64,000 nucleotides of DNA from a phage. Made by a program: the position numbers and the translations under genes. The number at the start of each line of letters is the position of its first letter. Within the stretch, counting starts at the first letter, position 1. Below, piece after piece: positions 2,507-60,619 of this stretch. Under the pieces are notes generated by a model. That model was not told the origin of the DNA. It worked only from the letters and a program-made list of their open reading frames with translations, and searched no databases. Location of the stretch: the sequence record OZ336096.1; one strand, 5' to 3'.

Positions 2507-2836
2507 TTAATCTGCCAACCTTAAATTGAAATTAACACCAAATTTTTCACATACTTCCAACATATACTCAAGGGAGACGTTACCAGTGAGATGGATTATG
2601 TTGGATACACGAGCCTGAGAGATACCACAAATTTTAGCGACTTGCTCTTGAGAAAGACCTCTGGATTTAATCTCTCTCTTAAAACGATGTGCAACGAAAT
2701 CTCTCATTTCGTCTACATCCATTGGACAGATGTAATTTTCCATTTCAGCCTCTCTATCAGCCTCCCAATCATCTTGTGGAGCATAAGGGTCAAAAACCTC
2801 ATTCATCTTTCTTCTTCCGTTTGCGTGAAGCATCAA
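2507..2836 (-). CDS. XRE-family helix-turn-helix DNA-binding protein
   Basis: 109 aa; LSQEQVAKICGISQARVSNI resembles an XRE HTH. Confidence 0.6.
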   Translation of the reverse strand: MMLHANGRRKMNEVFDPYAPQDDWEADREAEMENYICPMDVDEMRDFVAHRFKREIKSRGLSQEQVAKICGISQARVSNIIHLTGNVSLEYMLEVCEKFGVNFNLRLAD

Positions 2837-3011
2837 TCAATGAATCTATGTTTGTAGCTCTAACCTTTTCACGTTCATCGTTAAGATAATCATCAAGAGC
2901 CTTTTCAATCTGTGAATCATCTTGACAGATAACTGTAAAGACTGTAAAGCCGTCTGTATCGTCAATTATCTTACCATAACCGCTTCTGGGATGTAACTTT
3001 TTAAGAGCCAT
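2799..3011 (-). CDS. hypothetical protein
   Basis: 70 aa ORF; overlaps the upstream end of the HTH gene by ~38 nt. Confidence 0.3.
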   Translation of the reverse strand: MALKKLHPRSGYGKIIDDTDGFTVFTVICQDDSQIEKALDDYLNDEREKVRATNIDSLIDASRKRKKKDE

Positions 3012-3012
3012 A

Positions 3013-3396
3013 TTAGATACCTGTACAGCTTCTGTTTTCTAAGAAATACTCAACACCATACATAGCTTTTTGCATCAAATCTTCTTTAAACTGGATACGA
3101 TGATTGAGCATAGCCTGTACATCAATATCATCATGGTGTTTCTCTTTAATATTTGCAGATTGCAGGAAATACTCTGCAAGAACACGATATTGATAGTCAG
3201 TAACCTTATCAGTCATCTCTGTTAAAGACTCTTCAGAGATTGGTTTAAGTAACTCACCATTAGCCAGAGCAACACCTTTTACAATCTGGCAAGTGTCTTC
3301 TGGAACACCTGATAAGTCCACATTTGGAAGTTCTGTTGCATTGACTGGTAAATTCATTGCCATAACCATTGCAGCAGCTAATAAAATCTTTTTCAT
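3013..3396 (-). CDS. secreted/periplasmic protein (hypothetical)
   Basis: 127 aa; N-terminal signal-peptide-like MKKILLAAAMVMAMNLPVNA. Confidence 0.5.
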   Translation of the reverse strand: MKKILLAAAMVMAMNLPVNATELPNVDLSGVPEDTCQIVKGVALANGELLKPISEESLTEMTDKVTDYQYRVLAEYFLQSANIKEKHHDDIDVQAMLNHRIQFKEDLMQKAMYGVEYFLENRSCTGI

Positions 3397-3829
3397 AATG
3401 ACCTCAAAGTTATATTAAATTTTGTATTACATTGAGTATAAAAATAAGCTATAACACCTGACTTGTCAACAGATTTTATAGCTTATTTGGCAGATTTTTT
3501 ATAAGGCTACTGCCATCCTTCCATACCAGACTACACCATGCCAGACCAGACTTCACATCACCCTACCGTGCAATACATTACTTAAAAAACCTCTTAGAAA
3601 GACTCTTAAGTGATGCTGGTGAGTACCCGTTGGTTTATGCTGCTCAGTATACTCACCAAATTTTCTATGTCAACAACTTTTATATAAAAGTCCTGATAGC
3701 TATATGTGTTACAAAACAGAAGATTGTGAACAAAACACCCATTGCAAAAGATGTGTCCAAAAGCTTACTTGCAATGTATGACAATACAAAGACAACCAGT
3801 ATAAACAGAATGACTGTACTGAACATAGT

Positions 3830-4930
3830 TTACTCATAATCCCTAATAACTAGCCCTACAGGAAACTGTAAAGAACCCTTACGAGTCATCTTCTGGAACT
3901 GAACAGTTAAAGGTTTCCCGATAAACTCTTCAGGATGCTCAGCAAGATACTGTTTCTTCTCATGAGTAGTCTTCCATGATACATCTACAAAGACGTTAGG
4001 AAGAGTCTCTACAACGAACTTGCCATGACCACGCTTATCAGTCTTTACACCAGTCACTTTAAACTCTTCAGTGTGCATCTTCTTGTGCTTAATCAAGAAG
4101 TATGAACGGTGACAGCACTCATAGAAGGAGTCTTCAGAGATTGAACGGTACATTGCACCTTCAAACTGAGCTTCAACCCACTTATCATGGGCTTCATCAA
4201 ACTCTTCCCAAGAATTTACACGGATAGTCTGTACAGGAACCACTCTACAGGTATCCCCAAGCTCAACAATAGGTGAACTATCAATAACTTCACGACGCTC
4301 AGGCCAAGATTTTGAATTGTCACAGATATCATACCAGTAGAATTTAAGAAGGTGACGGTCTGGATTGTCAGCATTCTTAATCATAGACACAATATCTTCT
4401 AAGTCCTGCCCATGAGCATAAATCTCACCATCAAAGTCTTCAACTTGTGGATGTAATTTAAGCAACAAAAGCAAATCTGGAATTAGTTCTGCTGGAACGT
4501 TGTAAACAGTATTCTCACGAGAATAAGCTGTGAAACTAACTGTATCAGCATCTCTTGAAATTCTACAACGTACACCATCAAGTTTTGGTTGAGCATCAGC
4601 AGGGAACTTCAAATACTTTGCATGGCTAACCTTTGCAGCATCATGAGCAAGCTGTACACCTACCTTCTCAGTATTCTGTGCAGACTCTTTTGTATAAGCA
4701 TAACCTTTACGGTCAACTTGCTTTTTATACTTAGCAGCAACTTCAAAGAGAGCTTGCTGTTCAGCGTTACGCTCATTCTTTTTACCGATGTTTTTAGGTT
4801 CTGCTGTATACTCTTCAAACATCATCTTGCCATTTTCTTTACCGTAGGTTGTAATAACTTTGTCACCTACAGCAACACATGACCAAACGTTAAAAGAGCC
4901 ATCTTTATTTTGTTTGTACAGTATTGTCAT
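3830..4930 (-). CDS. ATP-dependent DNA ligase
   Basis: 366 aa; nucleotidyltransferase motif I KLDGVR, motif III FDGEIY, motif IV EGAMYR, motif V LIKHKK; T7-ligase-like size. Confidence 0.75.
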   Translation of the reverse strand: MTILYKQNKDGSFNVWSCVAVGDKVITTYGKENGKMMFEEYTAEPKNIGKKNERNAEQQALFEVAAKYKKQVDRKGYAYTKESAQNTEKVGVQLAHDAAKVSHAKYLKFPADAQPKLDGVRCRISRDADTVSFTAYSRENTVYNVPAELIPDLLLLLKLHPQVEDFDGEIYAHGQDLEDIVSMIKNADNPDRHLLKFYWYDICDNSKSWPERREVIDSSPIVELGDTCRVVPVQTIRVNSWEEFDEAHDKWVEAQFEGAMYRSISEDSFYECCHRSYFLIKHKKMHTEEFKVTGVKTDKRGHGKFVVETLPNVFVDVSWKTTHEKKQYLAEHPEEFIGKPLTVQFQKMTRKGSLQFPVGLVIRDYE

Positions 4931-5752: not shown

Positions 5753-5803
5753 ATAACCTCCTATATAAGATACAGTATAAGGTACTCTTCCCTGAGCACC
5801 TTG

Positions 5804-6337
5804 TCAACTTAGTTTTGCAAACTCTCCGTGGAGTTTAATAGCAGCTTCACAGTAAGCTTTATGGGCTTCTTCAGGGGTGTCATGGTGACCTAAAAACATC
5901 TTCTTACCTTTATAACTTATCTGTGCGACCCACTTACCAGACTTCTTCTTAAGACTTACACCCTTGTACCCAGATTTATTGGTGACTGGTTTACCTTTAT
6001 TCCAAGCACTTTGAAAATCATCTGCTTCCCTTAAGTTTACAATCCTGTTGTCAAGCGAGTCTCCGTTGATATGGTCAATGATACCTTTTGGCATCTTGCC
6101 ATACACGTAAAGCCATGCGAGTCTGTGTGCTTTATGTGCTTTCTTGTCAAAATAGATACTAATCTGTTTATGACCACTTGAATCAGTCTGGATATTACCT
6201 GCCACCTTTCCTGCATAATTACTGTTAAAAACACTAACAGCTCTTGATTTACCTTCTCTACGAAGCCAAGTAAAGACCCCTGTTTCGGGGTCATAGTGCA
6301 GCAGCTCCTTTAAACGTTTTTGTAAAATTAAGTCCAT
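5804..6337 (-). CDS. HNH homing endonuclease with AP2-like DNA-binding domain
   Basis: 177 aa; HNH motif IIDHINGDSLDNRIVNLR; C-terminal AP2-like SGYKGVSL..GKWVAQISYKGKK..LGHHDTPEEAHKAY; lies immediately downstream of the split polymerase gene. Confidence 0.75.
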   Translation of the reverse strand: MDLILQKRLKELLHYDPETGVFTWLRREGKSRAVSVFNSNYAGKVAGNIQTDSSGHKQISIYFDKKAHKAHRLAWLYVYGKMPKGIIDHINGDSLDNRIVNLREADDFQSAWNKGKPVTNKSGYKGVSLKKKSGKWVAQISYKGKKMFLGHHDTPEEAHKAYCEAAIKLHGEFAKLS

Positions 6338-6340
6338 TAA

Positions 6341-6895
6341 TCAATGTACCTCATACCAGCTCTTACCAACCTTTGCTGTACCAGTTACAAGTGTTTCTTT
6401 CCTCAAACCTAAGTTTTTTGAAGCTTGTCCATACATCCAGTCAGCAATTGCTTTCATATCCTGTGTCATACCCTCTGGACATTCCCAACTATTTTCATCG
6501 TGATATGCCAGAAGTAACCTTGCTCCGATAGCTGGTTTTCGAGCATTCAGTTTTGTCAGGCCATCTTCACAGGCTTTTCTTGCTGCTAGGTTGATGGCCT
6601 CATTCTGAATCTGTGCTTCCGAACTCATCAGGAGGTAGTTCAGTAGTTTATGTGGAGATTTGCACCATATCCATGCTCCAGCGACCCTGATATAACCACC
6701 TTTAGCAATTGAAGAATTCTTCCCAAAAACCTCTTCCAGAGCCTTTTTAGACGCCTTAAAATCGGCTTCTAAGCTATCAAGTAACTTCTTAATCTTTGGC
6801 AGACGCATATAGTAAGTTTGTTTAGTCAATGCACCTTCTTCCGTAGATGATGCTTTGATAGTTTTTGCAAACTTCTCGTCACCTGCACCGAACAA
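6341..6895 (-). CDS. DNA polymerase (family A), C-terminal exon/fragment
   Basis: Frame opens after a TGA as ..PDVLFGAGDEKFAKTIK (second half of motif B) and contains LLLAYHDENSWECPEG (motif C HDE). Confidence 0.7.
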   Translation of the reverse strand: MFGAGDEKFAKTIKASSTEEGALTKQTYYMRLPKIKKLLDSLEADFKASKKALEEVFGKNSSIAKGGYIRVAGAWIWCKSPHKLLNYLLMSSEAQIQNEAINLAARKACEDGLTKLNARKPAIGARLLLAYHDENSWECPEGMTQDMKAIADWMYGQASKNLGLRKETLVTGTAKVGKSWYEVH

Positions 6896-7160
6896 TACAT
6901 CTGGTCAATACACTCGCAAGGTGTACCAGTTCTCTTATGAACTTCTCCGCATTTCTACGGAGTGTCGGACTATATCACGTAGTAGTAATACTACCGTTGC
7001 ACTTGGGAATGGTCATTAGCTTACCACCCTACTCTACTCAGTTCATACATTAAGTATGCTTTTCGATAGTCTCTGAACGTTCCTCTTAAGAGGCTTCGCT
7101 GCTGATTACCATATCTTTTAAGACTTAGGCTTCCAGCAATTCACAACGTTTTACATGCGC
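6896..7160 (-). other. intervening sequence in DNA polymerase gene, putative small ORF-less group I intron (boundaries approximate)
   Basis: Upstream ORF stops at 7125 just after ..RKKSKNGIYAS (start of motif B); motif resumes at ~6898; RNA-sense sequence has GATATAGTCCGACACTCCGTAGAAATGCGGAG resembling the P9 region of the nrdD intron. Confidence 0.5.
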
Positions 7161-9308
7161 CACTGACGCATAGATGCCATTTTTGCTCTTCTTACGACCT
7201 TTTGTAATCTCGTGAAGAAGTTCCTCATCCTGTGTCTCCCTACAACGAACAATATCTTCTTCCTTGTTCAGACCAAAGTAAATACTGTTCAGTGTATGCG
7301 CATCAGTCCCTGTGTAGACTTCATAGAGGTCGTTCTCAGCATCATAACGAAGATACTTGTCAGTTTCTGGATTAAGATACTTATCGAGATGCTTGCAATA
7401 GTATCTTCCATCCTCTTGCTTAGTGAACTCTACTGACTCTTTACCCTCAGTTACTGCTTTAGTGAAGTCTTCATCACCCATAAAGTTACAAAGAAGAACT
7501 AGCTGGGCTGAGTTCTGGTCAACGGAAACGATGTTAGTCCCCTCCTCACAAATCCACACCTCCCTCATAGGTGCTCCATAGACAGCAGCACCAGACGGTA
7601 CGTTTACAATACCATATTGCGTCATACGTCCAGTTGAAGTACCAAACACCATTGCACCAGCACTAAGGCGACCATCTGGACGAATCTGGTTCAACCAACC
7701 TTTTTCATCATCCTTTGAGTTCTCAATAGTCCTGCGTCGGTGCATCAAAGTATAGTACTTAGCAATCTTCTGTCCAAGCTCACCTTCAATCGTATCATAA
7801 GATGATTCAGTAAGTTTTGGTGAAGTACGGATTAAGCAAGGCTCAAGCAAATCTGTGTACTTCTTCACAGACCAGTTATGTTCAATGTACTGGACACCTT
7901 CATGTTCAACATAACTCAAGCCGCACCGTTCAACCATCTCCTGCCACTTAGGATGCTTTGTAATCATCTTTTTGTTGTCTTTGAAACGACAAACTTTGAC
8001 AGGGCGACCATCTGAATCTTTCTTGTAGTTCCAGTCATCTGGAATCCAGCCAACTGATTTCAAGTAGTCTTTAACAACTGCTACTTGAGTCATACGAGAA
8101 ACTTCAAACTCAATTGGTGTATATGGTGCATCAATCAATCCTGTGTAGCGACTTGACTCCAGTCCAAAGTGGTTAACAACATGACTGTTATAGTACTTCA
8201 CAGTTTTAACTGTTTTTACTGGCTTCCAGTCTTTGCATTTCTTACCAATCTTTGCGTTCAACTCATTGCAAATTGCACGAGCATCCTTCATTGCTACAAA
8301 ACCCTCCTTGTACTCTTCACCAGTTACAGAGTTGGTTGGCGTATAGCAATTTCTCTTTTCAATGTTAAAAATCTTTGTAGTTGGCTTACCAAATGGTTTG
8401 ATTTCGTATGTCTGCATCTCACCGTTACGTACCTGCTGACGATACTTTGTCTTAGGGTACTTGGTAATCCTCTTCAGTCCATCTGCATGACCAAATGTTT
8501 CAACATACTCATTCCAAGCTTTTGCAAACTCTTCTCCAGTGACTTTACCTTTGGTCTTAATAGTTGGAGGAAGATGTGGTTCAACCTCTGAAGCAAGCTC
8601 ATTAGTCAACTTGTCAAGTTCCTTTACATGGAACTCCATAAGTTCTTTATCAGCTTTCCAACCATTGATAGCTTGTTGACTCATCCAGAAAGATGTTTCT
8701 TTAGCTCGCATGTAGGTTTCATAAGTGTCTATGCCACACTTCTTAAGCTTGAGATACTCATTATCAAGTGCCCGTTTAGTTTTGGCGTTAATACGGATAT
8801 CTTCTACAACACGAGTGAAGATTTCTGCATTCCACACACCCCAATGTTCAATCTCTGGTTTACGAACACCAACACGAGCACCCCATGCAGCCAAACCATG
8901 AGCACCTTTATAACCCTTTGGAGTTGGTCTATCCATCCACTGAACACGAGACTGGATAAGAGAATCCTGAAAGAAGTTACTCCACGGTTTACACTTTGGA
9001 TTATCAAAGTTCCATAAATCAGGTGCAATGTGGTTGAAAACCCACCAGTCATAACCGAGACCATTATGGATGCAAAGACGTTTTGCCTTTAACGCAAACT
9101 CAACACCTTCACGCAAACCACCCTTAATGTACTTGGTATACTTGTGACCGAGGATAGGCTCGTCTGTAAAGACCCATACAGGTGGCTCTTCATCGTCAGA
9201 TTTATAGTCTGCAAAGGCCATTACGTGAACTTTAGTGAACTCAAGGAGTAAACCATCAGTTTCTGTATCACCAACCAAATGTAAGTTTTTAAAATCTACG
9301 TTTTCCAT
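7125..9308 (-). CDS. DNA polymerase (family A) with 3'-5' exonuclease, N-terminal exon/fragment
   Basis: Exo I motif LVGDTETDGLL; motif A VSVDQNSAQLVLL; GTDAHTLNSIYFG; start chosen at MENVDF (9308) with GAGGGA RBS; ORF track gives 7125-9338. Confidence 0.8.
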   Translation of the reverse strand: MENVDFKNLHLVGDTETDGLLLEFTKVHVMAFADYKSDDEEPPVWVFTDEPILGHKYTKYIKGGLREGVEFALKAKRLCIHNGLGYDWWVFNHIAPDLWNFDNPKCKPWSNFFQDSLIQSRVQWMDRPTPKGYKGAHGLAAWGARVGVRKPEIEHWGVWNAEIFTRVVEDIRINAKTKRALDNEYLKLKKCGIDTYETYMRAKETSFWMSQQAINGWKADKELMEFHVKELDKLTNELASEVEPHLPPTIKTKGKVTGEEFAKAWNEYVETFGHADGLKRITKYPKTKYRQQVRNGEMQTYEIKPFGKPTTKIFNIEKRNCYTPTNSVTGEEYKEGFVAMKDARAICNELNAKIGKKCKDWKPVKTVKTVKYYNSHVVNHFGLESSRYTGLIDAPYTPIEFEVSRMTQVAVVKDYLKSVGWIPDDWNYKKDSDGRPVKVCRFKDNKKMITKHPKWQEMVERCGLSYVEHEGVQYIEHNWSVKKYTDLLEPCLIRTSPKLTESSYDTIEGELGQKIAKYYTLMHRRRTIENSKDDEKGWLNQIRPDGRLSAGAMVFGTSTGRMTQYGIVNVPSGAAVYGAPMREVWICEEGTNIVSVDQNSAQLVLLCNFMGDEDFTKAVTEGKESVEFTKQEDGRYYCKHLDKYLNPETDKYLRYDAENDLYEVYTGTDAHTLNSIYFGLNKEEDIVRCRETQDEELLHEITKGRKKSKNGIYASVAHVKRCELLEA

Positions 9309-22490: not shown

Positions 22491-23687
22491 ATGAACAAAG
22501 TACAAATTATTAAAAAGAATGGCTCACTTGAAGAACCGGATATCAAAAAAGTTTTAGTAGCAGTCACAAAGTCAGCTAACAGGGTTGGTTATAAAGAGCT
22601 TCCACCAGATGTTACTCAAGCCCTTGAGTCAGCATTTATGAGGATTCTGGTAAAATCTACTAAGCAGAATAATTTACTCGTTTCAGTAAATGATATTCAC
22701 AGTATTGTTGAAGGTGCTTTGGCAGAGGTCAATCACGAGATTTATGAGTCTTACTCAACATACAGAAATTACCGTAAAGAGGTTGCTCAAAATTGGGACG
22801 AACTCTACCAGAAGACTAAAGATACACTCTTCTTAGGTGACCGTGAAAATGCTAACTTTGACAGCAGTTTAATTTCTACGAAAGGTTCAATTATCCGTGG
22901 TTACCTGACTAAAGAAATCTTTAAACAGTATCATCTAACACCAGAGGAACTTGAAGCCATTGAGAAAGGCTTTATCTATATCCACGATTTGAGAGACCTG
23001 ATTTTTGGTGGTATTAACTGTTGCCTGTTTGACATTGGTAAAGTACTAAAAGGTGGCTTTGAAATGTCCGGCATTGAGTACTGTGAACCTAAATCTGTAC
23101 TGTCAGCGTTGCAGGTTATCGGTGACGTAGTACTTTCAGCAACTGCACAGCAATTTGGTGGATTTACTTTAGCAGAGATTGATAAGGTACTTGTACCGTA
23201 TGCTAAGAAGTCTCTACGCTATCATGCTGAGAAAGCAGCATCTTACGGTATTCCTAAAGAACATTACCATAATTATGTCATGGAGCAGCTACAGATTGAA
23301 TTAACTCAAGGTTTCCAGTCACTAGAGATGAAGCTAAATACTGTACCTTGTAGCCGTGGTGATTTCGCATTCACAACTTTAACATTTGGTTTACTTGACT
23401 CAGACATGTCTAATGAAGACAACCGACTACAATACATGATTGCAAACACCATTCTTGATGTTCGCATGAATGGACAAGGTAAGAGCAAGAAGCCTGTTGT
23501 ATTCCCTAAACTGGTTTATATTCATGACCAGAAGAGACACGATGAGAATATCTGTCAAGGTCAACTGTACAGTAAAGCTATTGAGTGTTGCTCTAAAGCT
23601 ATGTATCCAGATTTCTTAAGTGTATCTGGTCATGGTGCTGTAGCAGAGGCTTTTGAGCGTTCTGGCAAGGTAATTTCACCGATGGGT
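22491..23687 (+). CDS. nrdD: anaerobic ribonucleoside-triphosphate reductase, exon 1
   Basis: N-terminal ATP-cone; ORF ends ..VISPMG followed by in-frame TAA that I interpret as the first codon of the intron. Confidence 0.8.
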
Positions 23688-24003
23688 TAACAGGCTCTAT
23701 AGCTCATCTAAAACGTGCCTAAACAGGGAAACTCTACAGATGTAGACAATCCTGTGCTAAATGATGTACGATGTAAGAAACTATACAACATAGGAGTCTT
23801 ACATGCCAAATAACTTCGAATATGAGTTTGAATACATCTAAATGCCGAACGACTAACCGTGATGAATGTAGCGGTGTAGGGTCAAGCGACTCGAAATGGT
23901 ACGCTACTTAGAAATAAGTAGAAGATATAGTCTGGACTTACTGGCGACAGTAAGCAGCTTGAATAAAGCGGGGTAAGCTTAGCGAACTTACCTGAACAAC
24001 AAG
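23688..24003 (+). other. group I intron (ORF-less) interrupting nrdD
   Basis: 316 nt between exons; exon 1 ends in T, intron ends in G; contains GACAATCCTGTGCTAAAT, GGGTCAAGCGACTCGAAATGG, AGATATAGTCTGG, GGGGTAAG..CCTGAACAACAAG, which closely resemble core elements of the T4 td/nrdD introns as I remember them. Confidence 0.75.
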
Positions 24004-24951: not shown

Positions 24952-25013
24952 AACTTGACAAGGTGATGTGGGTCTTGATAGGCTTGCATCACCTTTTTAT
25001 TTGGAGTTACACT

Positions 25014-25349
25014 ATGGACTTGTGGCTTTATGTAGCAGTTTGTGGGATTGCATGTCTGATAATCTTATTTATTCTTGGAGTAATGCGATTTAGAGACATC
25101 ATACAGTCAGATTTTTTGCCTGAGTTTGCCATGATAGTTGGGGTTATTATACTTTGTGTCTTGGCGGTGTTCTATTCGTACAAAACTGTGATATGGATGG
25201 ATGCAAACAATTGTGTAAAAACTCATCAACATCGTGAGGTTACTTATTTTGTAAGTGTACTTAGTGGGAACACCACTATACTTGTCCCACAAACTTCTGT
25301 AGAGTATCTTTACACATGTGATAATGGTAAAACTATATGGTGGAATTAA
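25014..25349 (+). CDS. small membrane protein (hypothetical)
   Basis: ORF trimmed to ATG 25014; hydrophobic segments. Confidence 0.4.
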   Translation: MDLWLYVAVCGIACLIILFILGVMRFRDIIQSDFLPEFAMIVGVIILCVLAVFYSYKTVIWMDANNCVKTHQHREVTYFVSVLSGNTTILVPQTSVEYLYTCDNGKTIWWN

Positions 25350-25552
25350 CAATGACAACACTCTTGAAAGCATTGACACCCATACTACATATAGCAGTCT
25401 TCTTCTTTGGGGTTAGTGTTATGGTATGGGGTTTTTCAGACCCACAATGGAGTTTCTCATATCATGGTCAGATGGATTTATGGTCATGTTTCAAACCATT
25501 TTTAGGGTTAGCTATAGCATTCAGTGCATTACCAACTAAGGTGAAATTATGA
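25337..25552 (+). CDS. small membrane protein (hypothetical)
   Basis: 71 aa hydrophobic ORF. Confidence 0.4.
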   Translation: MVELTMTTLLKALTPILHIAVFFFGVSVMVWGFSDPQWSFSYHGQMDLWSCFKPFLGLAIAFSALPTKVKL

Positions 25553-25944: not shown

Positions 25945-26240
25945 GTAAAACAATTCGAAGAAAAGGTTTAAAGAACGTTCATGGACTCTATGAGTGGAGA
26001 AATAAGGTACGTAACAGAGAAAATGCTTCAGAGGTCTACTACCACTCTGATATGATGTCCAGAAAAGGTGGCTCTTACGACTTCACAAGTCAGCCTTGTA
26101 GAGAGATTAAGAAGGCTACTAAACGTCTTACAAGAACACAAATCAGGCAGCTTCCTAAGACATCCTTCTTAGATGAAGACTTTGACATTGATAGCAAGTC
26201 TCCAAAGAAAGCTGCTAAGAACACTTATATGTATTGGTGA
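25941..26240 (+). CDS. hypothetical basic protein
   Basis: 99 aa ORF. Confidence 0.4.
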   Translation: MSKTIRRKGLKNVHGLYEWRNKVRNRENASEVYYHSDMMSRKGGSYDFTSQPCREIKKATKRLTRTQIRQLPKTSFLDEDFDIDSKSPKKAAKNTYMYW

Positions 26241-26249: not shown

Positions 26250-26735
26250 ATGAATTACATGGAGATTAGACCATTTGACACAGCTAATGGTGAAGGGGTT
26301 CGTGTAAGCCTCTTCGTAGCTGGTTGTAAGCATCACTGTGAAGGCTGCTTTAACAGGGAGTCTTGGAAGTTTAATGCTGGTAAAGAGTTTACTTATGCAA
26401 ACCTCTACGGAATCATCCAACTAATGGGTGATAATGCTGTCAGTGGTTTGTCAATACTTGGTGGAGAACCTCTGGATGATAGAAATATTCAAGAGGTTAC
26501 CAATATATGTAAACGTATTAAAACTGTTTACCCAGAGAAGTCTATCTGGCTCTGGACAGGTTTTCAGTTACACGAAAAGATTCACTTAGATGTGATGAAA
26601 TATGTTGACGTGGTGATTGATGGTAAGTATGATTCATCTAAACCAACAGTTAAACCATATCGTGGTTCTAATAACCAAAACCTCTGGAGAAAAGAGTATG
26701 GGTGGCAAGGTGATTGTCAGTGGAGAGCCGAGTAA
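26250..26735 (+). CDS. nrdG: anaerobic ribonucleotide reductase activating protein (radical SAM)
   Basis: 161 aa; CKHHCEGC radical-SAM cluster motif. Confidence 0.8.
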   Translation: MNYMEIRPFDTANGEGVRVSLFVAGCKHHCEGCFNRESWKFNAGKEFTYANLYGIIQLMGDNAVSGLSILGGEPLDDRNIQEVTNICKRIKTVYPEKSIWLWTGFQLHEKIHLDVMKYVDVVIDGKYDSSKPTVKPYRGSNNQNLWRKEYGWQGDCQWRAE

Positions 26736-26772
26736 GTCTCGTCGTAAAGTAGGTTACGGAAAAGGTGAAATA

Positions 26773-27075
26773 ATGGTTCTTTCTTTTAACAGTGCTTTAT
26801 TAGGTACTTACAAAGTTAAGACCGAACTACTTGATGAATGGAGAAAGTATACAAACTCACTTTTCGGTAATGTTGGAATGGAAGCCTTAGCAGAGATTGA
26901 GAAGGCTGGAACCTTTGAAGTTGTTGGTAAAGGTCACTACACAATGTTCTACAAAACAAATTTAAACGTTGGTGACAGTATTGTTGGTGTCACTGAAGAA
27001 GAACTTAAAACATTTTGTGCAAAGATTGAGAGAGATATCAAATGGGAATCTGGAACAGTTTTAAATCAAAAGTAA
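26773..27075 (+). CDS. hypothetical protein
   Basis: ORF 26617-27075 trimmed to ATG 26773 after nrdG stop. Confidence 0.4.
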   Translation: MVLSFNSALLGTYKVKTELLDEWRKYTNSLFGNVGMEALAEIEKAGTFEVVGKGHYTMFYKTNLNVGDSIVGVTEEELKTFCAKIERDIKWESGTVLNQK

Positions 27076-27299
27076 AAGCAGCATTGGCATCACTAGGTAT
27101 GCTCACTGGTGTTGACGTTACTCATCTCATGCAGAACTTCAAGATGGATGAGAAACTAGCTAATGAGATTATGAAAAGCATCTATGTAGGTCGTGGAAAA
27201 GGTGGTAAAAAACAAGCACATCGACCAACTGGTGCAGCAGCAATTAAACGTGCAGCTAAAAAAGCTCGTAACCGTAAACGTAATAAGAAGGCTAAATAA
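27042..27299 (+). CDS. hypothetical basic protein
   Basis: 85 aa, Lys/Arg-rich C-terminus. Confidence 0.4.
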   Translation: MGIWNSFKSKVKAALASLGMLTGVDVTHLMQNFKMDEKLANEIMKSIYVGRGKGGKKQAHRPTGAAAIKRAAKKARNRKRNKKAK

Positions 27300-27301
27300 T
27301 C

Positions 27302-27622: not shown

Positions 27623-27673
27623 ACAGATACTATAAGGGGACTGTAAAGGTTCCCTTTTTATTTTGGAGATAAT

Positions 27674-28189
27674 ATGTATCTGTCAAACCTAAAACGTTCT
27701 GCTGCAATGTCAGTGCTAAGACTCAGCTTTGAGGAACGTCAAGAGTTCATTGACTCCCACCAATACGACCCCTCAAACTCCAATCACATGATTCTCTGGA
27801 ATCGTGAAAGTACTCGTGAAAGAGCACTATTCCGTTATTACCCACACTACACTATAGATAACCTGTATGAATGTTTTGTTGTGAAGAACACCATTACAGT
27901 ACTCAATAAACTTTGCAGATACACAGGTAGTCAATCCTTCACATTAGGCCACCACAAACCTGTTACAAAGGGTGGTGAGCATCACTGTGCAAACTGGTTT
28001 ATCCAGACTAAACTTGATAACCAGAAGCAGGGAGATAACCTTCTAAGCACACCTAAGATGACCTACGAAGAACAAGAGAAATATATCAAAAATAATATGC
28101 CAGATGTGCTTGACAACAACTATACAGATTTGGCAATATCTCTCCTGTTGAAGTTCGAGACAGTTTATAGGGCAACTTACAATGGCTAA
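27674..28189 (+). CDS. HNH endonuclease
   Basis: 171 aa; LGHHKPVTKGGEHHCANWFIQTKLDNQKQGDN resembles an HNH/His-Me finger. Confidence 0.6.
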   Translation: MYLSNLKRSAAMSVLRLSFEERQEFIDSHQYDPSNSNHMILWNRESTRERALFRYYPHYTIDNLYECFVVKNTITVLNKLCRYTGSQSFTLGHHKPVTKGGEHHCANWFIQTKLDNQKQGDNLLSTPKMTYEEQEKYIKNNMPDVLDNNYTDLAISLLLKFETVYRATYNG

Positions 28190-28460
28190 AGAAAAGTGGG
28201 AGATTTTACCATTAGTCAGTGAAGGTGGTAATGGTTGTGAGATGTACATGATACGTGGTCATGTTCCAGAACCAATTGCACTTGAGATGGTAAACAACTT
28301 TACAGATGGTTCTTACAAAGACTTAGGAGAGCCAACTATAAAGCATCAATGGGTAAAACCTGTACCAGACAGCACAGGTAACTGTAGTGTACTTTACCAC
28401 GTTGTAGACCCTGTAAAATGCAAATCTGCAATGGCAGTAACAAACGTAACTTTTGATTGA
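28182..28460 (+). CDS. hypothetical protein
   Basis: 92 aa ORF. Confidence 0.4.
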   Translation: MAKEKWEILPLVSEGGNGCEMYMIRGHVPEPIALEMVNNFTDGSYKDLGEPTIKHQWVKPVPDSTGNCSVLYHVVDPVKCKSAMAVTNVTFD

Positions 28461-28469
28461 GAGAAAATT

Positions 28470-28925
28470 ATGATTTTTTGCAGCTTCCAAAAAAGAATTA
28501 TTGAGATTCTATACAATAAGTTTGGGACAGATAACACATTTGACTCAAATGAAGCTATTGAAGCCCTACAAGAAGGAAGTGATTACATCAAAAAACAGCC
28601 AATAGCAAACATCAGGTACTACTTGACTCAGATGAGAAAGTGGGGTGTGCTCATCGTGGTAGGACAGATTAAGCAACAAGGGAGGATGCTCATCAACCAA
28701 TTAAATAGAGGTTTTATTGAGAAGCACATTCAGCTAGACTATTTACTTAAAGAGCCACGAAACCAACGTGAAGAGCAGCAAAAAGACTTAAGTGGTGGTG
28801 TAGGTGTGTCTCCAGACATAAAATTCTTTATTGGTGAGTTGATGTTTGATACACTCCAAGATGCTGTTGAACACTGCAAAAAGTATGTTATCAAAGTAAA
28901 ACGTGCAAAAATTATTTGGGAGTAA
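28470..28925 (+). CDS. paralog family protein, member 1 (type A)
   Basis: 151 aa; shares C-terminal motif FFIGELMF..AVEHCKKYVIKVKRAKIIWE with three downstream genes. Confidence 0.55.
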   Translation: MIFCSFQKRIIEILYNKFGTDNTFDSNEAIEALQEGSDYIKKQPIANIRYYLTQMRKWGVLIVVGQIKQQGRMLINQLNRGFIEKHIQLDYLLKEPRNQREEQQKDLSGGVGVSPDIKFFIGELMFDTLQDAVEHCKKYVIKVKRAKIIWE

Positions 28926-28929
28926 TAAC

Positions 28930-29325
28930 ATGTTTGAGCTTCTGAAGGTTCTGTATATAAATTTTGGCTATGATAAAACATTTTCTGGCTCACAACTAAC
29001 TAAGGTTTTTAATAAGTATCTACCACATGCTTCAATCAGGGATAAAGCTAATTGGTCTCACAGATTACGTAAAAGTGGGTATATTAGCGTTGTTGGAGCG
29101 ACAGGCTTTAATAATGAGTATCTTATGAGAATCAATGAAGGCAAAGCTAAAAATGTGCTTTTAAATTGTAATGACCATCAACAAAAGGATGAAGAGGTTA
29201 GTGTAGGTGAAGTAGGGTACTTTATAGGTGACATGCACTTTACCAGTATGGAGGCAGCAGTTGAGCATTGTAAGAGAACGGTTATCCAAACAAAAAGAAA
29301 GCGTATTGTTTGGGAAGAAGTTTAA
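28930..29325 (+). CDS. paralog family protein, member 2 (type B)
   Basis: Start set at ATG 28930 (MFELLKVLY); C-terminal AVEHCKRTVIQTKRKRIVWE. Confidence 0.5.
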   Translation: MFELLKVLYINFGYDKTFSGSQLTKVFNKYLPHASIRDKANWSHRLRKSGYISVVGATGFNNEYLMRINEGKAKNVLLNCNDHQQKDEEVSVGEVGYFIGDMHFTSMEAAVEHCKRTVIQTKRKRIVWEEV

Positions 29326-29346
29326 ACATTTGATTAGGAATACACT

Positions 29347-29811
29347 ATGATTTTTTGCAATTTACAGAAGCACGTAATAGAGATTTTATACAAAACCTTC
29401 GGGACAGAAAACACTTTTGACTCTAACGAAGCAATTGACGCATTAAGAGAGAATAGCCTTTTTATACGAGGCCAGTCAATCAGTAATACCCGTGGGTATC
29501 TAACAATGTTAAGACAGTCTGGTGTACTGCTGACTGTAGGGCAGGTAAAAAGCAAAGGTAGACTAAGTATTAATCAATTAAATCGAGCCTTTATGGAGAA
29601 GCACATACAACTGTCAAGGATGCTAGATAATACGCGTGAAGAGTTGGGGAGTTCACAAAAAGCAAGTTCATCTGATGTTAAAGAGGTGGATGTACAACCT
29701 GACGTAAGATACTTTATTGCTGATGTTATGTTTAAAACACTCGATGAAGCTATTGAGCACTGCAAAAAGCATCTTATTAAAGTTAAATATGCAAAAGTTA
29801 TTTGGGAGTGA
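29347..29811 (+). CDS. paralog family protein, member 3 (type A)
   Basis: 154 aa; near-collinear with member 1 (MIFCNLQKHVIEILYKTFG... vs MIFCSFQKRIIEILYNKFG...). Confidence 0.55.
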   Translation: MIFCNLQKHVIEILYKTFGTENTFDSNEAIDALRENSLFIRGQSISNTRGYLTMLRQSGVLLTVGQVKSKGRLSINQLNRAFMEKHIQLSRMLDNTREELGSSQKASSSDVKEVDVQPDVRYFIADVMFKTLDEAIEHCKKHLIKVKYAKVIWE

Positions 29812-29815
29812 TGCT

Positions 29816-30196
29816 ATGATTGAACTGTTAAAAGTCCTGTATAATGAGTTTGGTTATGATAAAACTTTTACTTGTTCACAGATACGTAGTATCCATGATA
29901 AGGAATTTCCAAATGTATCCAAGACAAACAAGTCAACTCGGTTCAATCGTCTTCGCCAGAGGGGTTACATTAAAATAGTTGGATACAAGAATAACTCTTT
30001 CGAGTATGTAATGCAGATTAACAGAGAAGTATCAAGTAAAATACTTGAAGAGCCAACAGCCGAAGAACAAAAGATACAAGACGGTGAAGTTCGCTTCTTT
30101 GTGGAGAAGGAAAGTTTTGGGTCAATAGATGAAGCTGTCGAATATTGTAAAAAGAACATTATTCAGATAAAGCGTAGAAAGGTTATTTGGGAATAA
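29816..30196 (+). CDS. paralog family protein, member 4 (type B)
   Basis: Start set at ATG 29816 (MIELLKVLY); collinear with member 2. Confidence 0.5.
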   Translation: MIELLKVLYNEFGYDKTFTCSQIRSIHDKEFPNVSKTNKSTRFNRLRQRGYIKIVGYKNNSFEYVMQINREVSSKILEEPTAEEQKIQDGEVRFFVEKESFGSIDEAVEYCKKNIIQIKRRKVIWE

Positions 30197-30211: not shown

Positions 30212-31093
30212 ATGAAAACATCTATCCGTGTTACAGTTCATTCACCGACTAAAGGGACTCACGAAGAAGAGTTTAACATTATCCAATTCCCTTCTGGTGA
30301 GATTGGTGGACACTTTTCACAAGAGCTTGTTGATTTCACTGCTTATGCAGCATCATCCATCAACAATGTGATTATGATTGTAAAGGGTTACGATAAGGAT
30401 ACCTTGTTTGCCCTAGCACTTGCTAAAGAGGTGGTGGATGACTTAGTACCTCATAAGTTTGCTATGAAGACTGTTATCTTTTACTATTTGCCAAATGCAC
30501 GTTACGACCGTCACATGTTTAAAGGTGATGCAGCAGCTTTGAAAGTGTTTGCACAACAGGTTAATGCAATGGGTTTTGATGCAGTCTGTGCAGTTGACCC
30601 TCACAGCTATGTACCAGATAACCTGTTTAACTGCTTCCAGAGTATTCCTCAAAAGGAAATTGCAGTTCACTATGCAAATGACCCTCTGATTGATTACTTA
30701 GTAGCCCCAGATGCAGGTGCTGCTAAGAAGATTGCAGAGACTGCTAAAGAGGTGGATAAACCATATATCACAATGTCTAAAGTACGCAACCTTAAGACTG
30801 GTGAAATTACTGGTATGCGAATCCTTGATGATGTTGATTTGACAGATAAAACCGTCATGATTCTGGATGATATCTGTGATGGTGGTCGAACCTTCATAGA
30901 AGCAGCGAAACATCTTCGTGAAGCAGGTGCAAAACGTGTGGAACTATATGTAACACATGGTATCTTCTCTAAAGATGTTGAAAACCTTCTTGACAACGGT
31001 ATCGACCATATTTACACTACAAACTCTTTAGGCGAAGCTAAAGACCGTGGCTTAACACATTATAGCCAAGTTACTGTAGCAAACCTTGATTGA
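30212..31093 (+). CDS. ribose-phosphate pyrophosphokinase-like protein (Prs-like; candidate ADP-ribose pyrophosphokinase)
   Basis: 293 aa; phosphoribosyltransferase-type PRPP-binding loop VMILDDICDGGRTF; Prs-like layout. Confidence 0.7.
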   Translation: MKTSIRVTVHSPTKGTHEEEFNIIQFPSGEIGGHFSQELVDFTAYAASSINNVIMIVKGYDKDTLFALALAKEVVDDLVPHKFAMKTVIFYYLPNARYDRHMFKGDAAALKVFAQQVNAMGFDAVCAVDPHSYVPDNLFNCFQSIPQKEIAVHYANDPLIDYLVAPDAGAAKKIAETAKEVDKPYITMSKVRNLKTGEITGMRILDDVDLTDKTVMILDDICDGGRTFIEAAKHLREAGAKRVELYVTHGIFSKDVENLLDNGIDHIYTTNSLGEAKDRGLTHYSQVTVANLD

Positions 31094-31138: not shown

Positions 31139-32419
31139 ATGACTAAATCACTTTATGCAGTACCAGCAGGTTTAAACGCAGATGCTTACAAGTCATCGCA
31201 TATATATCAGTATCCAGATGCTACACAGTATCTTATGCTGAACCTGACGCCACGTAGTGACAAATGGTTTAACAGCCCCTTAGCAATTGATGGTGTAGTA
31301 GCTTTTGGTATTCAACGTTTCGTTAAAGATTACTTGATAGACCACTGGAACGCCACTTTCTTTGAACGTGATAAAAAAGAAGCAATTGACGAAATCTTAG
31401 AAGTCATGAACGGTGTTCTGGGCAAAGATGCTATTGGTCGAGAGCATTGGGAAGCACTTCACGACTTAGGTTATCTGCCAGTCGAAGTATACGCTGTAGA
31501 AGAAGGCACAGTTGTTCCAATGCGTGTCCCAATGATTGTCTTCCAGAACACTGTTTCAGGCTTCCATTGGGTAGCAGGTTATCTGGAAGACGCTTTCTCT
31601 GCTGAGATTTGGAAGGCTTGTACCATTGCAACTATTGCATTGCACTACAAACGTATCTGTAAGAAGTGGGCTGACCTTACTTGTGACAACGACTTGCATT
31701 TACCTTATCAGTGCCATGACTTTGCTATGCGTGGTATGTCCGGCTTTACTGATGACGCATTTAACGCTGTAGGCCACTTAACCAGCTTTAAAGGAACTGA
31801 TAGCTTCCCTGCTGTATATACAGCTAAACGCATCTACGGGCAGTCTTACCCAATCTCTGATATTGGTGGTTCTGTACCAGCCACTGAACACTCTGTAATG
31901 TGTGCAAACATTGCTTGGGAAGGTGGTAATGAATTGATTGAAGAAGAAAGACGCTTCAAAGGTGAGTTGCAAACCTTCCGTCGCTTCTTAACAGAGACTT
32001 ACCCAACTGGTATTGCAAGTGTTGTTTCAGACACTTATAACTTCTGGAGAACTGTGTCAGAAATCTTACCAGCACTCCGTAAAGAGATTATGGAACGTGA
32101 TGGCAAACTGGTAATTCGTCCTGACTCTGGAGACCCTGTACATATTGTCACAGGTTATAAAGCAATCCACTTAGAGTGTGCTAAAAAGGCTTATTACGAG
32201 CACCTAAGCAAGCTAGAGGCAGGTGATACAATGCTGAGCACCGTCCTGAACATGAAGCTTGAAGATATTAACTATGTTATGGCTGGGTGGTTACGTGCAG
32301 AAGGCTATGAAATGGTGGTTGACAGAGAAGACTTTGAAGTAGCCGATACAGTGTTGCTGAAAGCTTCATGTTCAGGACGGTGCTCAGCATTGTATCACCT
32401 GTCGAAGTATACGCTGTAG
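31139..32419 (+). CDS. nicotinamide phosphoribosyltransferase-like protein, 5' part (disrupted by internal duplication)
   Basis: 426 aa ORF; NAMPT-like; terminates inside the duplication junction after ..TVLLKASCSGRCSALYHLSKYTL. Confidence 0.65.
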   Translation: MTKSLYAVPAGLNADAYKSSHIYQYPDATQYLMLNLTPRSDKWFNSPLAIDGVVAFGIQRFVKDYLIDHWNATFFERDKKEAIDEILEVMNGVLGKDAIGREHWEALHDLGYLPVEVYAVEEGTVVPMRVPMIVFQNTVSGFHWVAGYLEDAFSAEIWKACTIATIALHYKRICKKWADLTCDNDLHLPYQCHDFAMRGMSGFTDDAFNAVGHLTSFKGTDSFPAVYTAKRIYGQSYPISDIGGSVPATEHSVMCANIAWEGGNELIEEERRFKGELQTFRRFLTETYPTGIASVVSDTYNFWRTVSEILPALRKEIMERDGKLVIRPDSGDPVHIVTGYKAIHLECAKKAYYEHLSKLEAGDTMLSTVLNMKLEDINYVMAGWLRAEGYEMVVDREDFEVADTVLLKASCSGRCSALYHLSKYTL

Positions 32420-33283
32420 AAGAAGGCACAGTTGTTCCAATGCGTGTCCCAATGATTGTCTTCCAGAACACTGTTTCAGGCTTCCATTGGGTAGCAGGTT
32501 ATCTGGAAGACGCTTTCTCTGCTGAGATTTGGAAGGCTTGTACCATTGCAACTATTGCATTGCACTACAAACGTATCTGTAAGAAGTGGGCTGACCTTAC
32601 TTGTGACAACGACTTGCATTTACCTTATCAGTGCCATGACTTTGCTATGCGTGGTATGTCCGGCTTTACTGATGACGCATTTAACGCTGTAGGCCACTTA
32701 ACCAGCTTTAAAGGAACTGATAGCTTCCCTGCTGTATATACAGCTAAACGCATCTACGGGCAGTCTTACCCAATCTCTGATATTGGTGGTTCTGTACCAG
32801 CCACTGAACACTCTGTAATGTGTGCAAACATTGCTTGGGAAGGTGGTAATGAATTGATTGAAGAAGAAAGACGCTTCAAAGGTGAGTTGCAAACCTTCCG
32901 TCGCTTCTTAACAGAGACTTACCCAACTGGTATTGCAAGTGTTGTTTCAGACACTTATAACTTCTGGAGAACTGTGTCAGAAATCTTACCAGCACTCCGT
33001 AAAGAGATTATGGAACGTGATGGCAAACTGGTAATTCGTCCTGACTCTGGAGACCCTGTACATATTGTCACAGGTTATAAAGCAATCCACTTAGAGTGTG
33101 CTAAAAAGGCTTATTACGAGCACCTAAGCAAGCTAGAGGCAGGTGATACAATGCTGAGCACCGTCCTGAACATGAAGCTTGAAGATATTAACTATGTTAT
33201 GGCTGGGTGGTTACGTGCAGAAGGCTATGAAATGGTGGTTGACAGAGAAGACTTTGAAGTAGCCGATACAGTGTTGCTGAAAG
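31481..33283. repeat. perfect tandem direct duplication (2 x 883 bp) inside the NAMPT-like gene, joined by a 37 nt inverted segment
   Basis: 31481-32363 equals 32401-33283; junction 32364-32400 is the exact reverse complement of 32221-32257. Confidence 0.9.
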
Positions 33284-33840
33284 ATGCTTACATCAACGGC
33301 TCTGCAAACGTTGTAACACGTCCTGTAGCGGAGATTGATGGAGCTATCAAGACACTGTATAACATCTTTGGGGGAACTATTAACTCTAAAGGGTTTAAGG
33401 TACTGGATGAGCACATCGGCCTTATCTATGGTGACTCTATCACACTGGAACGTGCAAACGAAATCCTGAAGCGTCTGTATGAAATGGGTTTTGCAAGCTC
33501 TAACGTGGTGTTTGGTGTAGGTTCTTACACTTACCAGTACATGACTCGTGACACCTTTGCATTTGCTGTCAAAGCAACTCTTGCAAGCATTGGTGGTAAA
33601 GAGATTATGCTTGCAAAAGACCCTAAAACAGATAGTGGTGTTAAAAAATCTGCCTTTGGTGGTGTAGCACCTATGTGGGATGGTGATAAGCTGAAAGCTG
33701 TAGATGGCTATGGATTCCAGAGTTTTGCGGATGTACTTGACCACCCAGCTTGTGCTTTACGTTTAGTCTTTAGTGACTCTGAGCAGTTCGGTTACACAAC
33801 TCTTGGTGATATTCGAAATAATATTGACAAGCAGCTTTAA
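32368..33840 (+). CDS. nicotinamide phosphoribosyltransferase-like protein, 3' part
   Basis: 490 aa ORF starting in the junction; contains second repeat copy plus unique C-terminus. Confidence 0.65.
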   Translation: MFRTVLSIVSPVEVYAVEEGTVVPMRVPMIVFQNTVSGFHWVAGYLEDAFSAEIWKACTIATIALHYKRICKKWADLTCDNDLHLPYQCHDFAMRGMSGFTDDAFNAVGHLTSFKGTDSFPAVYTAKRIYGQSYPISDIGGSVPATEHSVMCANIAWEGGNELIEEERRFKGELQTFRRFLTETYPTGIASVVSDTYNFWRTVSEILPALRKEIMERDGKLVIRPDSGDPVHIVTGYKAIHLECAKKAYYEHLSKLEAGDTMLSTVLNMKLEDINYVMAGWLRAEGYEMVVDREDFEVADTVLLKDAYINGSANVVTRPVAEIDGAIKTLYNIFGGTINSKGFKVLDEHIGLIYGDSITLERANEILKRLYEMGFASSNVVFGVGSYTYQYMTRDTFAFAVKATLASIGGKEIMLAKDPKTDSGVKKSAFGGVAPMWDGDKLKAVDGYGFQSFADVLDHPACALRLVFSDSEQFGYTTLGDIRNNIDKQL

Positions 33841-33854
33841 AAGTATATGATAAG

Positions 33855-33878
33855 AGGCTCCTACGGGAGCCTTTTTAA
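33855..33878 (+). terminator. intrinsic terminator
   Basis: GGCTCCTACGGGAGCC hairpin followed by TTTTT. Confidence 0.55.
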
Positions 33879-58605: not shown

Positions 58606-58682
58606 CTCTGTTTAGCTCAGCTTGGTAGAGCGTTCCGTTTGGGGCGGTAAGGCCGGAGGTTCAAGTCCTCCAACAGAGACCA
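58606..58682 (+). tRNA. tRNA-Pro (anticodon UGG)
   Basis: 7 bp acceptor CTCTGTT/AACAGAG, D-arm TAGCTCAGCTTGGTAGAGC, T-loop GGTTCAAGTCC, CCA encoded; hand-folded. Confidence 0.6.
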
Positions 58683-58689
58683 AATTAAT

Positions 58690-58767
58690 GTTCCAGTAGA
58701 CAAAACGGTAAAGTCACCACTCTTTCAAAGTGGATATTTGAGGGTTCAAATCCCTTCTGGAACGCCA
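58690..58767 (+). tRNA. tRNA-Glu (UUC)
   Basis: Acceptor GTTCCAG/CTGGAAC, anticodon loop CTTTCAA, T-loop GGTTCAAATCC. Confidence 0.7.
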
Positions 58768-58858
58768 GTTTTGACAGAAGACCAATTGCAGCAAACTTAA
58801 TCTTATTCATCTGACACGAAATCGGACAAAGAAGAGATTTGGTCTGGTCATTAAGAAT

Positions 58859-58935
58859 TGCGGGTATAGAGAAAGGGCGTCTCACATGTCTCATTAGCAT
58901 GGTATCGGCAGGTTCGACTCCTGCACCCGCCTCCA
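58859..58935 (+). tRNA. tRNA-Met (CAU)
   Basis: Anticodon stem CATGT/GCATG, loop CTCATTA, T-loop GGTTCGACTCC; 1-72 mismatch. Confidence 0.55.
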
Positions 58936-59012
58936 ATTTTGCAGAAGACCGTATTCAGCAACAAAATACTTTTTGCGGATAAAAGAAAAAACACGGTCTG
59001 GCAATGTATTAA

Positions 59013-59089
59013 GGTTAGGAAGCACATAAGGTATGTGCGGTCGCCTGTTAAGCGAATGGCACAGGGTTCGAATCCCTGACTAACCGCCA
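59013..59089 (+). tRNA. tRNA-Asn (GUU)
   Basis: Acceptor GGTTAGG, loop CTGTTAA, T-loop GGTTCGAATCC. Confidence 0.65.
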
Positions 59090-59098
59090 AATTTAAAT

Positions 59099-59186
59099 GT
59101 GTCGTTATCCCGTAGATGGTAGCGGTGGGGACTGTAAATCCCTTGTCATTGAGACTCGGTAGGTTCGACTCCTACACGGCACACCA
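59099..59186 (+). tRNA. tRNA-Tyr (GUA), long variable arm
   Basis: Acceptor GTGTCGT/ACGGCAC, loop CTGTAAA, long variable arm, T-loop GGTTCGACTCC. Confidence 0.65.
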
Positions 59187-59192
59187 AATAAA

Positions 59193-59270
59193 GGTTATGT
59201 AGTTTAATCTGGTTAAAATACTCCCCTGTCACGGGAGATGATGAGGGTTCAAATCCCTTCGTAACCGCCA
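59193..59270 (+). tRNA. tRNA-Asp (GUC)
   Basis: Acceptor GGTTATG/CGTAACC, AC stem CTCCC/GGGAG, loop CTGTCAC. Confidence 0.7.
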
Positions 59271-59803: not shown

Positions 59804-59807
59804 ATAT

Positions 59808-59884: not shown

Positions 59885-59885
59885 A

Positions 59886-60606: not shown

Positions 60607-60619
60607 AAGTCTTATTAGG

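Follow-up and report, generated by a model that had tools for sequence, protein, structure and literature searches.

Four small tandem genes at positions 28470–30196 of a stretch of Felixounavirus genome (sequence record OZ336096.1; 64,000 nucleotides (nt), hereafter the window) belong to a phage protein family that is so far undescribed. Here we describe these genes, designated A1, B1, A2 and B2, which their junctions identify as a stack of two optional cassettes, each of two genes, lodged in the spacer between a conserved gene of 92 amino acids (aa) and adps, the first gene of the NAD+-rebuilding operon NARP1. Gain, loss and stacking of the cassette take place by recombination at a repeated spacer made up of a gene tail and a ribosome-binding site. 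Each protein is predicted to join a winged-helix domain, through a linker, to a short C-terminal module (C-module) common to all four. We tentatively favour a composite reading of an optional, paired cassette of winged-helix nucleic-acid binders that act in trans and use the common C-module for pairing or docking. Undescribed, besides the family itself, are its C-module and its pair-wise, stackable organisation adjoining NARP1; the winged-helix fold class and ORFan cassettes in phage plastic regions are familiar already.

Pairwise alignment resolves the four consecutive plus-strand genes, which encode 126–154 aa, into two types alternating as A-B-A-B, as had been proposed from the letters of the window before any database search (the sequence-only reading). 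Identity is 58% between A1 and A2 and 43% between B1 and B2 (BLASTP E = 9e-37) and amounts to 26–35% between the types (A1 versus B1, BLASTP E = 4e-20), well removed from chance level. The C-terminal motif noticed in the same reading is likewise present in every member, the consensus then quoted being slightly idealised: nine residues are invariant across 17 family members (F120, F126, A132, E134, C136, I141, K144, W150 and E151 in A1 numbering), and variants within the family include YF, AIEHC, AVEYC and KYAK. In a program-made list of open reading frames (ORFs), B1 and B2 had been given longer GTG or TTG starts (for B1, a GTG at 28903). The ATG starts at 28930 and 29816 were chosen instead because GGGAG stands at the right distance upstream of each and the same ATGs are annotated in GenBank relatives. 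Judged by their sequences, all four ORFs are genuine protein-coding genes rather than chance ORFs, since they match PHROG 29478 and their orthologues are under purifying selection, with ratios of non-synonymous to synonymous substitution rates (dN/dS) of 0.05–0.2 at dS near 1, like those of nrdG, adps and two upstream genes.

AlphaFold2 models of one member of each type, A1 and B2, agree in placing a winged helix at the N terminus (predicted local distance difference test (pLDDT) of about 90; 87–92 over aa 1–70 of B2), with the topology H1-S1-H2-H3-S2-W1-S3 and structural similarity to solved winged helix-turn-helix (wHTH) domains. An acidic, poorly predicted linker leads to the C-module of about 35 aa, modelled as a β-hairpin and a helix (pLDDT 60–75; aa 94–115 in B2), after which come a basic K.KR.K stretch and the invariant terminal Trp-Glu. 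Confidence in this predicted architecture is high for the N-domain and moderate for the C-module. All four proteins are basic (isoelectric point (pI) of about 9; N-domains 9.1–9.9), with linkers that carry a net charge of −1 to −4. Between the A and B types the N-domains retain only about 23% identity and the C-modules 42–58%, the pattern expected if diverged recognition heads were carried on a common C-terminal function.

The C-module alone found no significant relative in PDB or Pfam, and the family showed no nuclease similarity in Pfam, PHROG or PDB. Two candidate likenesses were rejected. The SH2 domains of NCK1/2 and GRB2, and NDUFS4, align with the C-module through a 24-aa strand-turn-strand and an F-x-T-x-E-E-x-V-E-H-x-K-K helix cap; these matches span only 24–36 residues at E of 0.02–0.1 and were judged to be chance, the SH2 domain being an α-β-α sandwich of about 100 aa, whereas the phage module has 35 aa and lacks the phosphotyrosine-binding residues. 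A His-Me finger nuclease (HNH-type, ββα-metal) was set aside for want of an invariant His, since H135, the sole His of the module, is replaced by Tyr in B2, in several B1 orthologues and in A3, the third A type, which is found in relatives in A2-A3 pairs.

The family is rare and, as the sequence-only reading implied in failing to recognise it, has no annotated relative in PDB, BFVD, Pfam or PHROG, nor any relative outside the family in PDB and BFVD. PHROG 29478, of function unknown, is matched by all four proteins (A1, E = 1.3e-62; B1, 4.7e-14; A2, 1.6e-67; B2, 1.3e-15), end to end or, for the B types, over aa 3–129. Pfam searched at E ≤ 10 with the full proteins and with the C-module alone gave sub-threshold noise only (XopL_C, RBFA, NDUS4, Tap-RNA_bind); PADLOC-DB, a set of defence-system models, gave no match at E ≤ 1 to the four proteins and three neighbours; and an Rfam scan of 27.5–31.2 kb gave nothing near threshold. 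Searches of the literature on Felixounavirus comparative genomics and winged-helix proteins turned up no mention of the locus. The array region is 97–98% identical to its counterpart in Felixounavirus genomes, for example those of Salmonella phage vB_CECAV_041 and Escherichia phages JN01 and finno, and the GenBank orthologues, 97–99% identical, are labelled hypothetical proteins (for example, finno_52-55 and cecavS41_124-127).

By tblastn, any family member occurs in just 16 of 50,697 phage records, all of them Ounavirinae (Felixounavirus and Mooglevirus), and the family ORFs are intact in all 16 as well as in several metagenomic contigs. Among 5.8 billion proteins the family amounts to 14 clusters, and an exhaustive HMMER search of 1.84 billion representatives returned five matches, of which only P0015 and P0016 lay beyond the known members. 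P0015 (125 aa), the only distant relative, is encoded singly and at a different locus, on an Ounavirinae-like contig that is itself more remote; it combines a nearly intact C-module with a very different head. P0016, a metagenomic protein of 1424 aa, contains at least six tandem winged-helix units that weakly resemble the family N-domain (E = 3e-5, three matched stretches). No further members emerged when the C-module profile and P0015 served as queries in word-indexed searches. Pattern scans of IMG/VR and of one genome each from 185,579 bacterial and archaeal species found no relatives, and no bacterial or prophage source is therefore evident.

Presence or absence of the genes at the site is precise. 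The whole array is found in 11 of the 216 phage records that match the region, in each case at this one intergenic position, and most Felixounavirus records have none of its genes; among the matches listed, array-less records have the flanks about 660 bp apart in the record, that is, adjacent. In radambza and Bas63 the site is empty, the 92-aa gene being followed by adps after 11 nt. Elsewhere it holds an A1-B1 pair alone (contigs L007, L008 and L012–L017), an A2-A3 pair alone (Pr103Blw, Mordin, L009 and L010) or the quadruple (the window, L001, L004 and L011). Family genes at this site come as pairs or as the quadruple, the only singleton seen, P0015, lying elsewhere, and no further family copies were detected in the window or in whole array-minus or array-plus genomes. 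In one quadruple-bearing record, Salmonella phage fBSPA4 (L004), the left-border 92-aa gene is missing and A1 comes immediately after the upstream gene, which has a 166-aa version there (2708–3224 of that record).

The junctions point to how these states arose. The cassette, of 0.9–1.7 kb, is bounded by copies of the 92-aa-gene tail plus ribosome-binding site (..ACTTTTGATTGAGAGA..ATG), and the two-gene cassette of Mordin has an exact 37-nt copy of this tail and site at either end. Within the window a degenerate copy precedes A2 (Table 1), and a direct repeat, D3, relates 28448–28573 to 29325–29450 at 74% identity. Because junction repeats lie at the cassette ends and at the A2 seam, we conclude from the sequence that recombination at the repeated spacer produced the quadruple by placing an A1-B1 cassette on top of one of A2 type, and that copy number has changed in the same way. 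What the sequence-only reading called a diversified array of tandem paralogues is more aptly seen as a pair of alternative cassettes, each of two genes, stacked where recombination occurs at a single site; whole-gene dN/dS does not point to rapid diversifying selection. The junction motif TGAGAGAR is the ordinary stop-plus-ribosome-binding-site context of the phage and not a dedicated recombination signal, occurring 8 times in the window against 7.1 expected.

The cassette and its surroundings have discordant histories. Among quadruple-bearing phages the cassette shows dS of 0–0.09 and 96–100% nucleotide identity, as against dS of 0.2–0.4 and 85–96% identity in the flanks; in comparison with Pr103Blw the flanks are close (dS 0.2–0.3) and A2 is an old allele (dS 2.3). 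These discordances indicate, at the level of sequence, that cassettes move between backbones and that the quadruple spread recently and horizontally between diverged Felixounavirus backbones; the isolates that bear it come from Spain, Denmark and India. When tiles of the window were set against four genomes, two with the array and two lacking it, candidate loci for co-variation with the array emerged at 26.8–27.2 kb, at 44.8–46.2 kb and as a single tile at 53.2 kb, and neither of the first two was confirmed. The stretch at 26.8–27.2 kb was rejected as other array-plus phages diverge there, and that at 44.8–46.2 kb as it occurs in 131 records that include array-minus ones.

Within each A-B pair the genes are closely joined. 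Only 4 nt separate the A stop from the B start, an arrangement repeated in the A1-B1 pair of L007, and the Shine–Dalgarno sequence of each B gene lies inside the codons for the invariant Trp-Glu of the preceding A gene (Table 1), which together suggest that B1 is translationally coupled to A1, and B2 to A2. Gaps within the array are 4–21 nt, and 15 nt lie between the B2 stop and the adps start, in keeping with the placement immediately upstream of the NAD+ module given in the sequence-only reading. The 171-aa gene at 27674–28189, the 92-aa gene, the four paralogues, adps and namat probably form one transcription unit, since no convincing signal was seen between the terminator-like sites at its two ends. 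Repeat and consensus scans, together with inspection of the junctions, revealed no promoter, operator or inverted repeats in or beside the cassette. The 171-aa gene itself (PHROG 3500; 280 bp upstream of the array) carries an HNH-like motif (HHKPVTKGGEHH..N); its product matches the HNH endonuclease PHROG 2214 weakly (E = 2.4e-4) and has no Pfam HNH match, and the gene is conserved in relatives regardless of array presence.

Table 1. Features of the array, its insertion site and the putative transcription unit (window coordinates).
Feature	Position	Strand	Description
A1	28470..28925	+	151 aa; predicted winged-helix domain about aa 1–90 (28470–28739), acidic linker aa 96–116, C-module aa 116–151 (28815–28922)
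B1	28930..29325	+	131 aa; shorter predicted winged-helix domain, short linker, common C-module; terminus ..IVWEEV
A2	29347..29811	+	154 aa; orthologue of the first gene in A2-A3 pairs (identity 81% in Pr103Blw, 74% in Mordin)
B2	29816..30196	+	126 aa; predicted winged helix aa 1–77 (29816–30046), C-module aa 92–126 (30089–30193)
Left junction repeat	28448..28469	+	last codons of 92-aa gene plus ribosome-binding site (AACTTTTGATTGAGAGAAAATT), directly before the A1 ATG
Degenerate second copy of junction repeat	29325..29346	+	AAACATTTGATTAGGAATACAC before the A2 ATG; seam of the A1-B1 and A2-B2 cassettes
Shine–Dalgarno GGGAG in A1 Trp-Glu codons	28917..28922	+	7 nt before the B1 ATG
Shine–Dalgarno GGGAG in A2 Trp-Glu codons	29803..29808	+	7 nt before the B2 ATG
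Conserved 92-aa gene	28182..28460	+	PHROG 4726; left border of insertion site
adps (annotated prs)	30212..31093	+	right border; first NARP1 gene, outside the family; Pfam Pribosyltran and Pribosyl_synth
Terminator-like hairpin	27634..27656	+	consensus scan; equivalent terminators annotated in Mordin
Terminator-like site	33852–33875		consensus scan; downstream end of putative unit

Downstream lies the NARP1 pair, Adps and Namat, whose genes carry the annotations prs and nadV; the window Adps is 80% identical to the product of Bas63 gene 79. Osterman et al. showed that genes 79–80 of the Felixounavirus Bas63 rebuild NAD+ from ADP-ribose (ADPR) and nicotinamide, and that this pair, NARP1, counters SIR2-HerA (bioRxiv 10.1101/2024.02.11.579819). 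NARP1 is independent of the array, as it functions in Bas63, whose site is empty; it occurs with no array in about 200 records. Conversely, contig L009 retains its A2-A3 pair despite a NARP1 deletion that fuses the first 24 codons of adps in frame to the next gene. The array is neither part of NARP1 nor required for it, and their association is positional only, given the empty site of Bas63 and the pair kept in L009. The fusion partner in L009, a metagenomic Ounavirinae contig, is a 111-aa gene that normally follows namat (3527–3901 of the contig).

In the composite reading that we favour, the winged-helix heads would bind nucleic acid and would have diverged into different specificities (A1, A2, A3, B1 and B2), and the C-module would give all members one function, most likely the pairing of co-translated partners or else docking on a shared partner protein. 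The proteins would act in trans on targets that pre-exist in every recipient, for example host DNA, host proteins or conserved phage DNA, because the cassette brings essentially no non-coding DNA and has no confirmed co-varying second locus. They would be dispensable modulators of infection, expressed along with the nucleotide-metabolism and NARP1 genes. The specificity-swapped regulators suggested in the sequence-only reading fit this anatomy of diverged winged-helix heads on a conserved C-module, although the cassette itself holds no promoter or operator.

Several points weigh against this composite. The mechanism draws on fold prediction and gene arrangement, and the alignments beneath the AlphaFold2 models are shallow (17–18 sequences). 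The C-module is modelled with only moderate confidence, and its last 8–10 residues, which include the invariant Trp-Glu, fall below a pLDDT of 50 in both the A1 and B2 models, so that the pairing or docking role is a guess. A2-A3 pairs are separated by a 33-nt spacer with its own ribosome-binding site and lack tight coupling; this loose spacing, together with the singleton P0015, means that obligate heterodimerisation would not be a family-wide rule. Selection on whole genes is purifying and not diversifying, which also argues against a classical arms-race effector.

This last point bears equally on an anti-defence role, which the sequence-only reading had already raised. In such a cassette the proteins would bind a host defence protein, or repress or occupy its DNA, would form a small island with NARP1 and would have been spread by host selection. 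The position of the array 15 nt upstream of NARP1, a validated counter-defence operon in Bas63, in what is apparently one transcription unit, is in favour of this reading, as are an accessory, patchy distribution, a cassette far more similar than its flanks, as after a recent selective sweep, and the lack of a cis element, by which the target would already exist in host or phage. The proteins, however, have no homology to any described protein, the PADLOC search was empty, dN/dS of 0.05–0.2 carries no arms-race signature, and their basic winged-helix character brings them nearer to nucleic-acid binders than to the sponges or mimics usual among known inhibitors. Direct support is absent: proximity to NARP1 is the sole argument, and Bas63 and L009 reduce it to one of position. 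We consider this explanation unlikely as a separate account, while noting that it overlaps our composite, because a DNA-binding anti-defence protein would satisfy both. A more specific version, to which we give the same low weight, is a horizontally sweeping counter-defence or host-takeover module. Co-translated pairs, joined by the invariant ..K.KR.K..WE module or docking through it, would target a locus or protein of host immunity and silence or occupy it; the head types A1, A2, A3, B1 and B2 would then match different host targets, and the site beside NARP1 would be an anti-defence island of the Ounavirinae.

A winged-helix fold encoded directly upstream of adps, on the same strand, could also belong to dedicated transcription regulators of adps-namat or of the whole nucleotide-metabolism unit. 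We judge this improbable, as NARP1 is expressed or retained despite an empty site in Bas63 and in about 200 further records, L009 keeps its pair after losing NARP1, the 15-nt spacer before adps offers neither a promoter-like gap nor an inverted-repeat operator, and gain of the cassette brings no new non-coding DNA. The same compact layout led us to reject autoregulators of the Aca type, whose helix-turn-helix (HTH) gene stands at the 3′ end of the anti-defence operon that it represses through inverted repeats in the promoter: the array lies upstream of adps and not downstream, and has no promoter-sized gap and no inverted repeats. Free-standing homing endonuclease genes of T4-like phages would be the analogue for a further reading, that of a selfish mobile cassette in which the proteins would be DNA-targeting subunits for a nuclease (for example, the HNH-like 171-aa protein) or would hide a cryptic ββα-metal nuclease in the C-module. 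The clean presence or absence at an intergenic site with flanking sequence duplicated at the ends, the near-identity that runs into diverged flanks like a co-conversion tract, the hairpin-plus-helix topology of the C-module, the weakly HNH-like gene 280 bp upstream and the many homing endonucleases of Felixounaviruses would all be in accord with it. Against this, the C-module has no invariant His, searches of Pfam, PHROG and PDB revealed no likeness to nucleases, the HNH-like gene nearby belongs to the core and occurs with or without the cassette, and recombination at the repeated, ribosome-binding-site-containing spacer explains the junctions with no dedicated nuclease, which together make a selfish element very improbable. 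That the array is missing from most relatives with no obvious consequence might, finally, suggest non-functional duplicated ORFs or chance similarity; this is refuted by the pairwise E values (4e-20 to 9e-37), by ORFs intact in all 16 GenBank records, by dN/dS of 0.05–0.2 at dS near 1 and by two models that fold confidently.

Among described proteins, the N-domain is closest in fold to small winged-helix regulators of the MarR, PadR, Fur/PerR and SarA/SarX types. The likeness does not extend to sequence membership: no MarR, PadR or Fur family appeared in Pfam at E ≤ 10 for any of the four, and Foldseek E values were no better than 0.03. The N- and C-terminal dimerisation helices of the MarR type and the metal sites of Fur are absent, their place being taken by the linker and the hairpin/helix module ending in Trp-Glu; moreover, unlike such regulators, the array genes lack a promoter and operator of their own, and they occur in pairs that can be exchanged. 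NARP1, known from Bas63 and other phages, comes next downstream on that strand and apparently shares a transcription unit with the array; it is a two-gene enzyme system, whereas the paralogues have no enzymatic domains. In the hyperplastic regions of T4-like phages, gene cassettes are shuffled via repeated regulatory or intergenic sequences, and the array resembles these in its small ORFans set precisely between conserved genes, its repeated short intergenic flanks, its variable copy number and its discordant phylogeny. It differs in that the repeat is an upstream gene tail plus ribosome-binding site and not a promoter-stem-loop, and in that the cargo is always one paralogous family, in pairs.

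Should the proteins bind nucleic acid as paired modules, the array would provide a compact natural case of a common interaction module with swappable recognition heads, and one in which the junctions directly record how it evolved through the stacking of cassettes. Being dispensable and very small, carried by phages that grow on E. coli K-12, such as finno, and placed beside a proven anti-defence operon, the cassette is an easily testable candidate for host-range or counter-defence functions. Felixounaviruses are widely proposed for the biocontrol of Salmonella and E. coli, a use for which such a function would matter; otherwise the array would simply add to the orphan families that phage plastic regions contain.

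Further observations concern the rest of the window. The namat (nadV) region, 31139–33840, contains an exact 883-nt tandem duplication (31481–32363 = 32401–33283, offset 920), the filler of which, 32364–32400, is part of a 41-nt inverted copy of 32220–32260. Through this duplication the gene is broken into ORFs of 426 and 490 aa that overlap, where relatives have one intact gene of 1782 nt, and not one of the 258 phage records that match shares it; either it arose as an artefact of assembly or chimerism, or it is a rearrangement that inactivates NARP1. Positions 26700–27300 hold an alternative allele that shares only about 60–75% identity with most close relatives, other bearers of the array among them, and 90–98% with Pr103Blw and JN01, a local mosaicism independent of the array. 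Tiles 6001, 7001, 23801 and 26001 had no match in the four compared Felixounavirus genomes, with neighbouring tiles matching weakly or in some of them, and tiles 25001 and 25201 matched only the two array-minus genomes; the stretches at about 5800–7200, 23600–24000, 25000–25400 and 26000–26200 probably represent additional insertions or alternative alleles and may be homing endonuclease genes. On the plus strand, 58606–63556 holds 24 clustered tRNA genes, a feature typical of Felix-O1-like phages.

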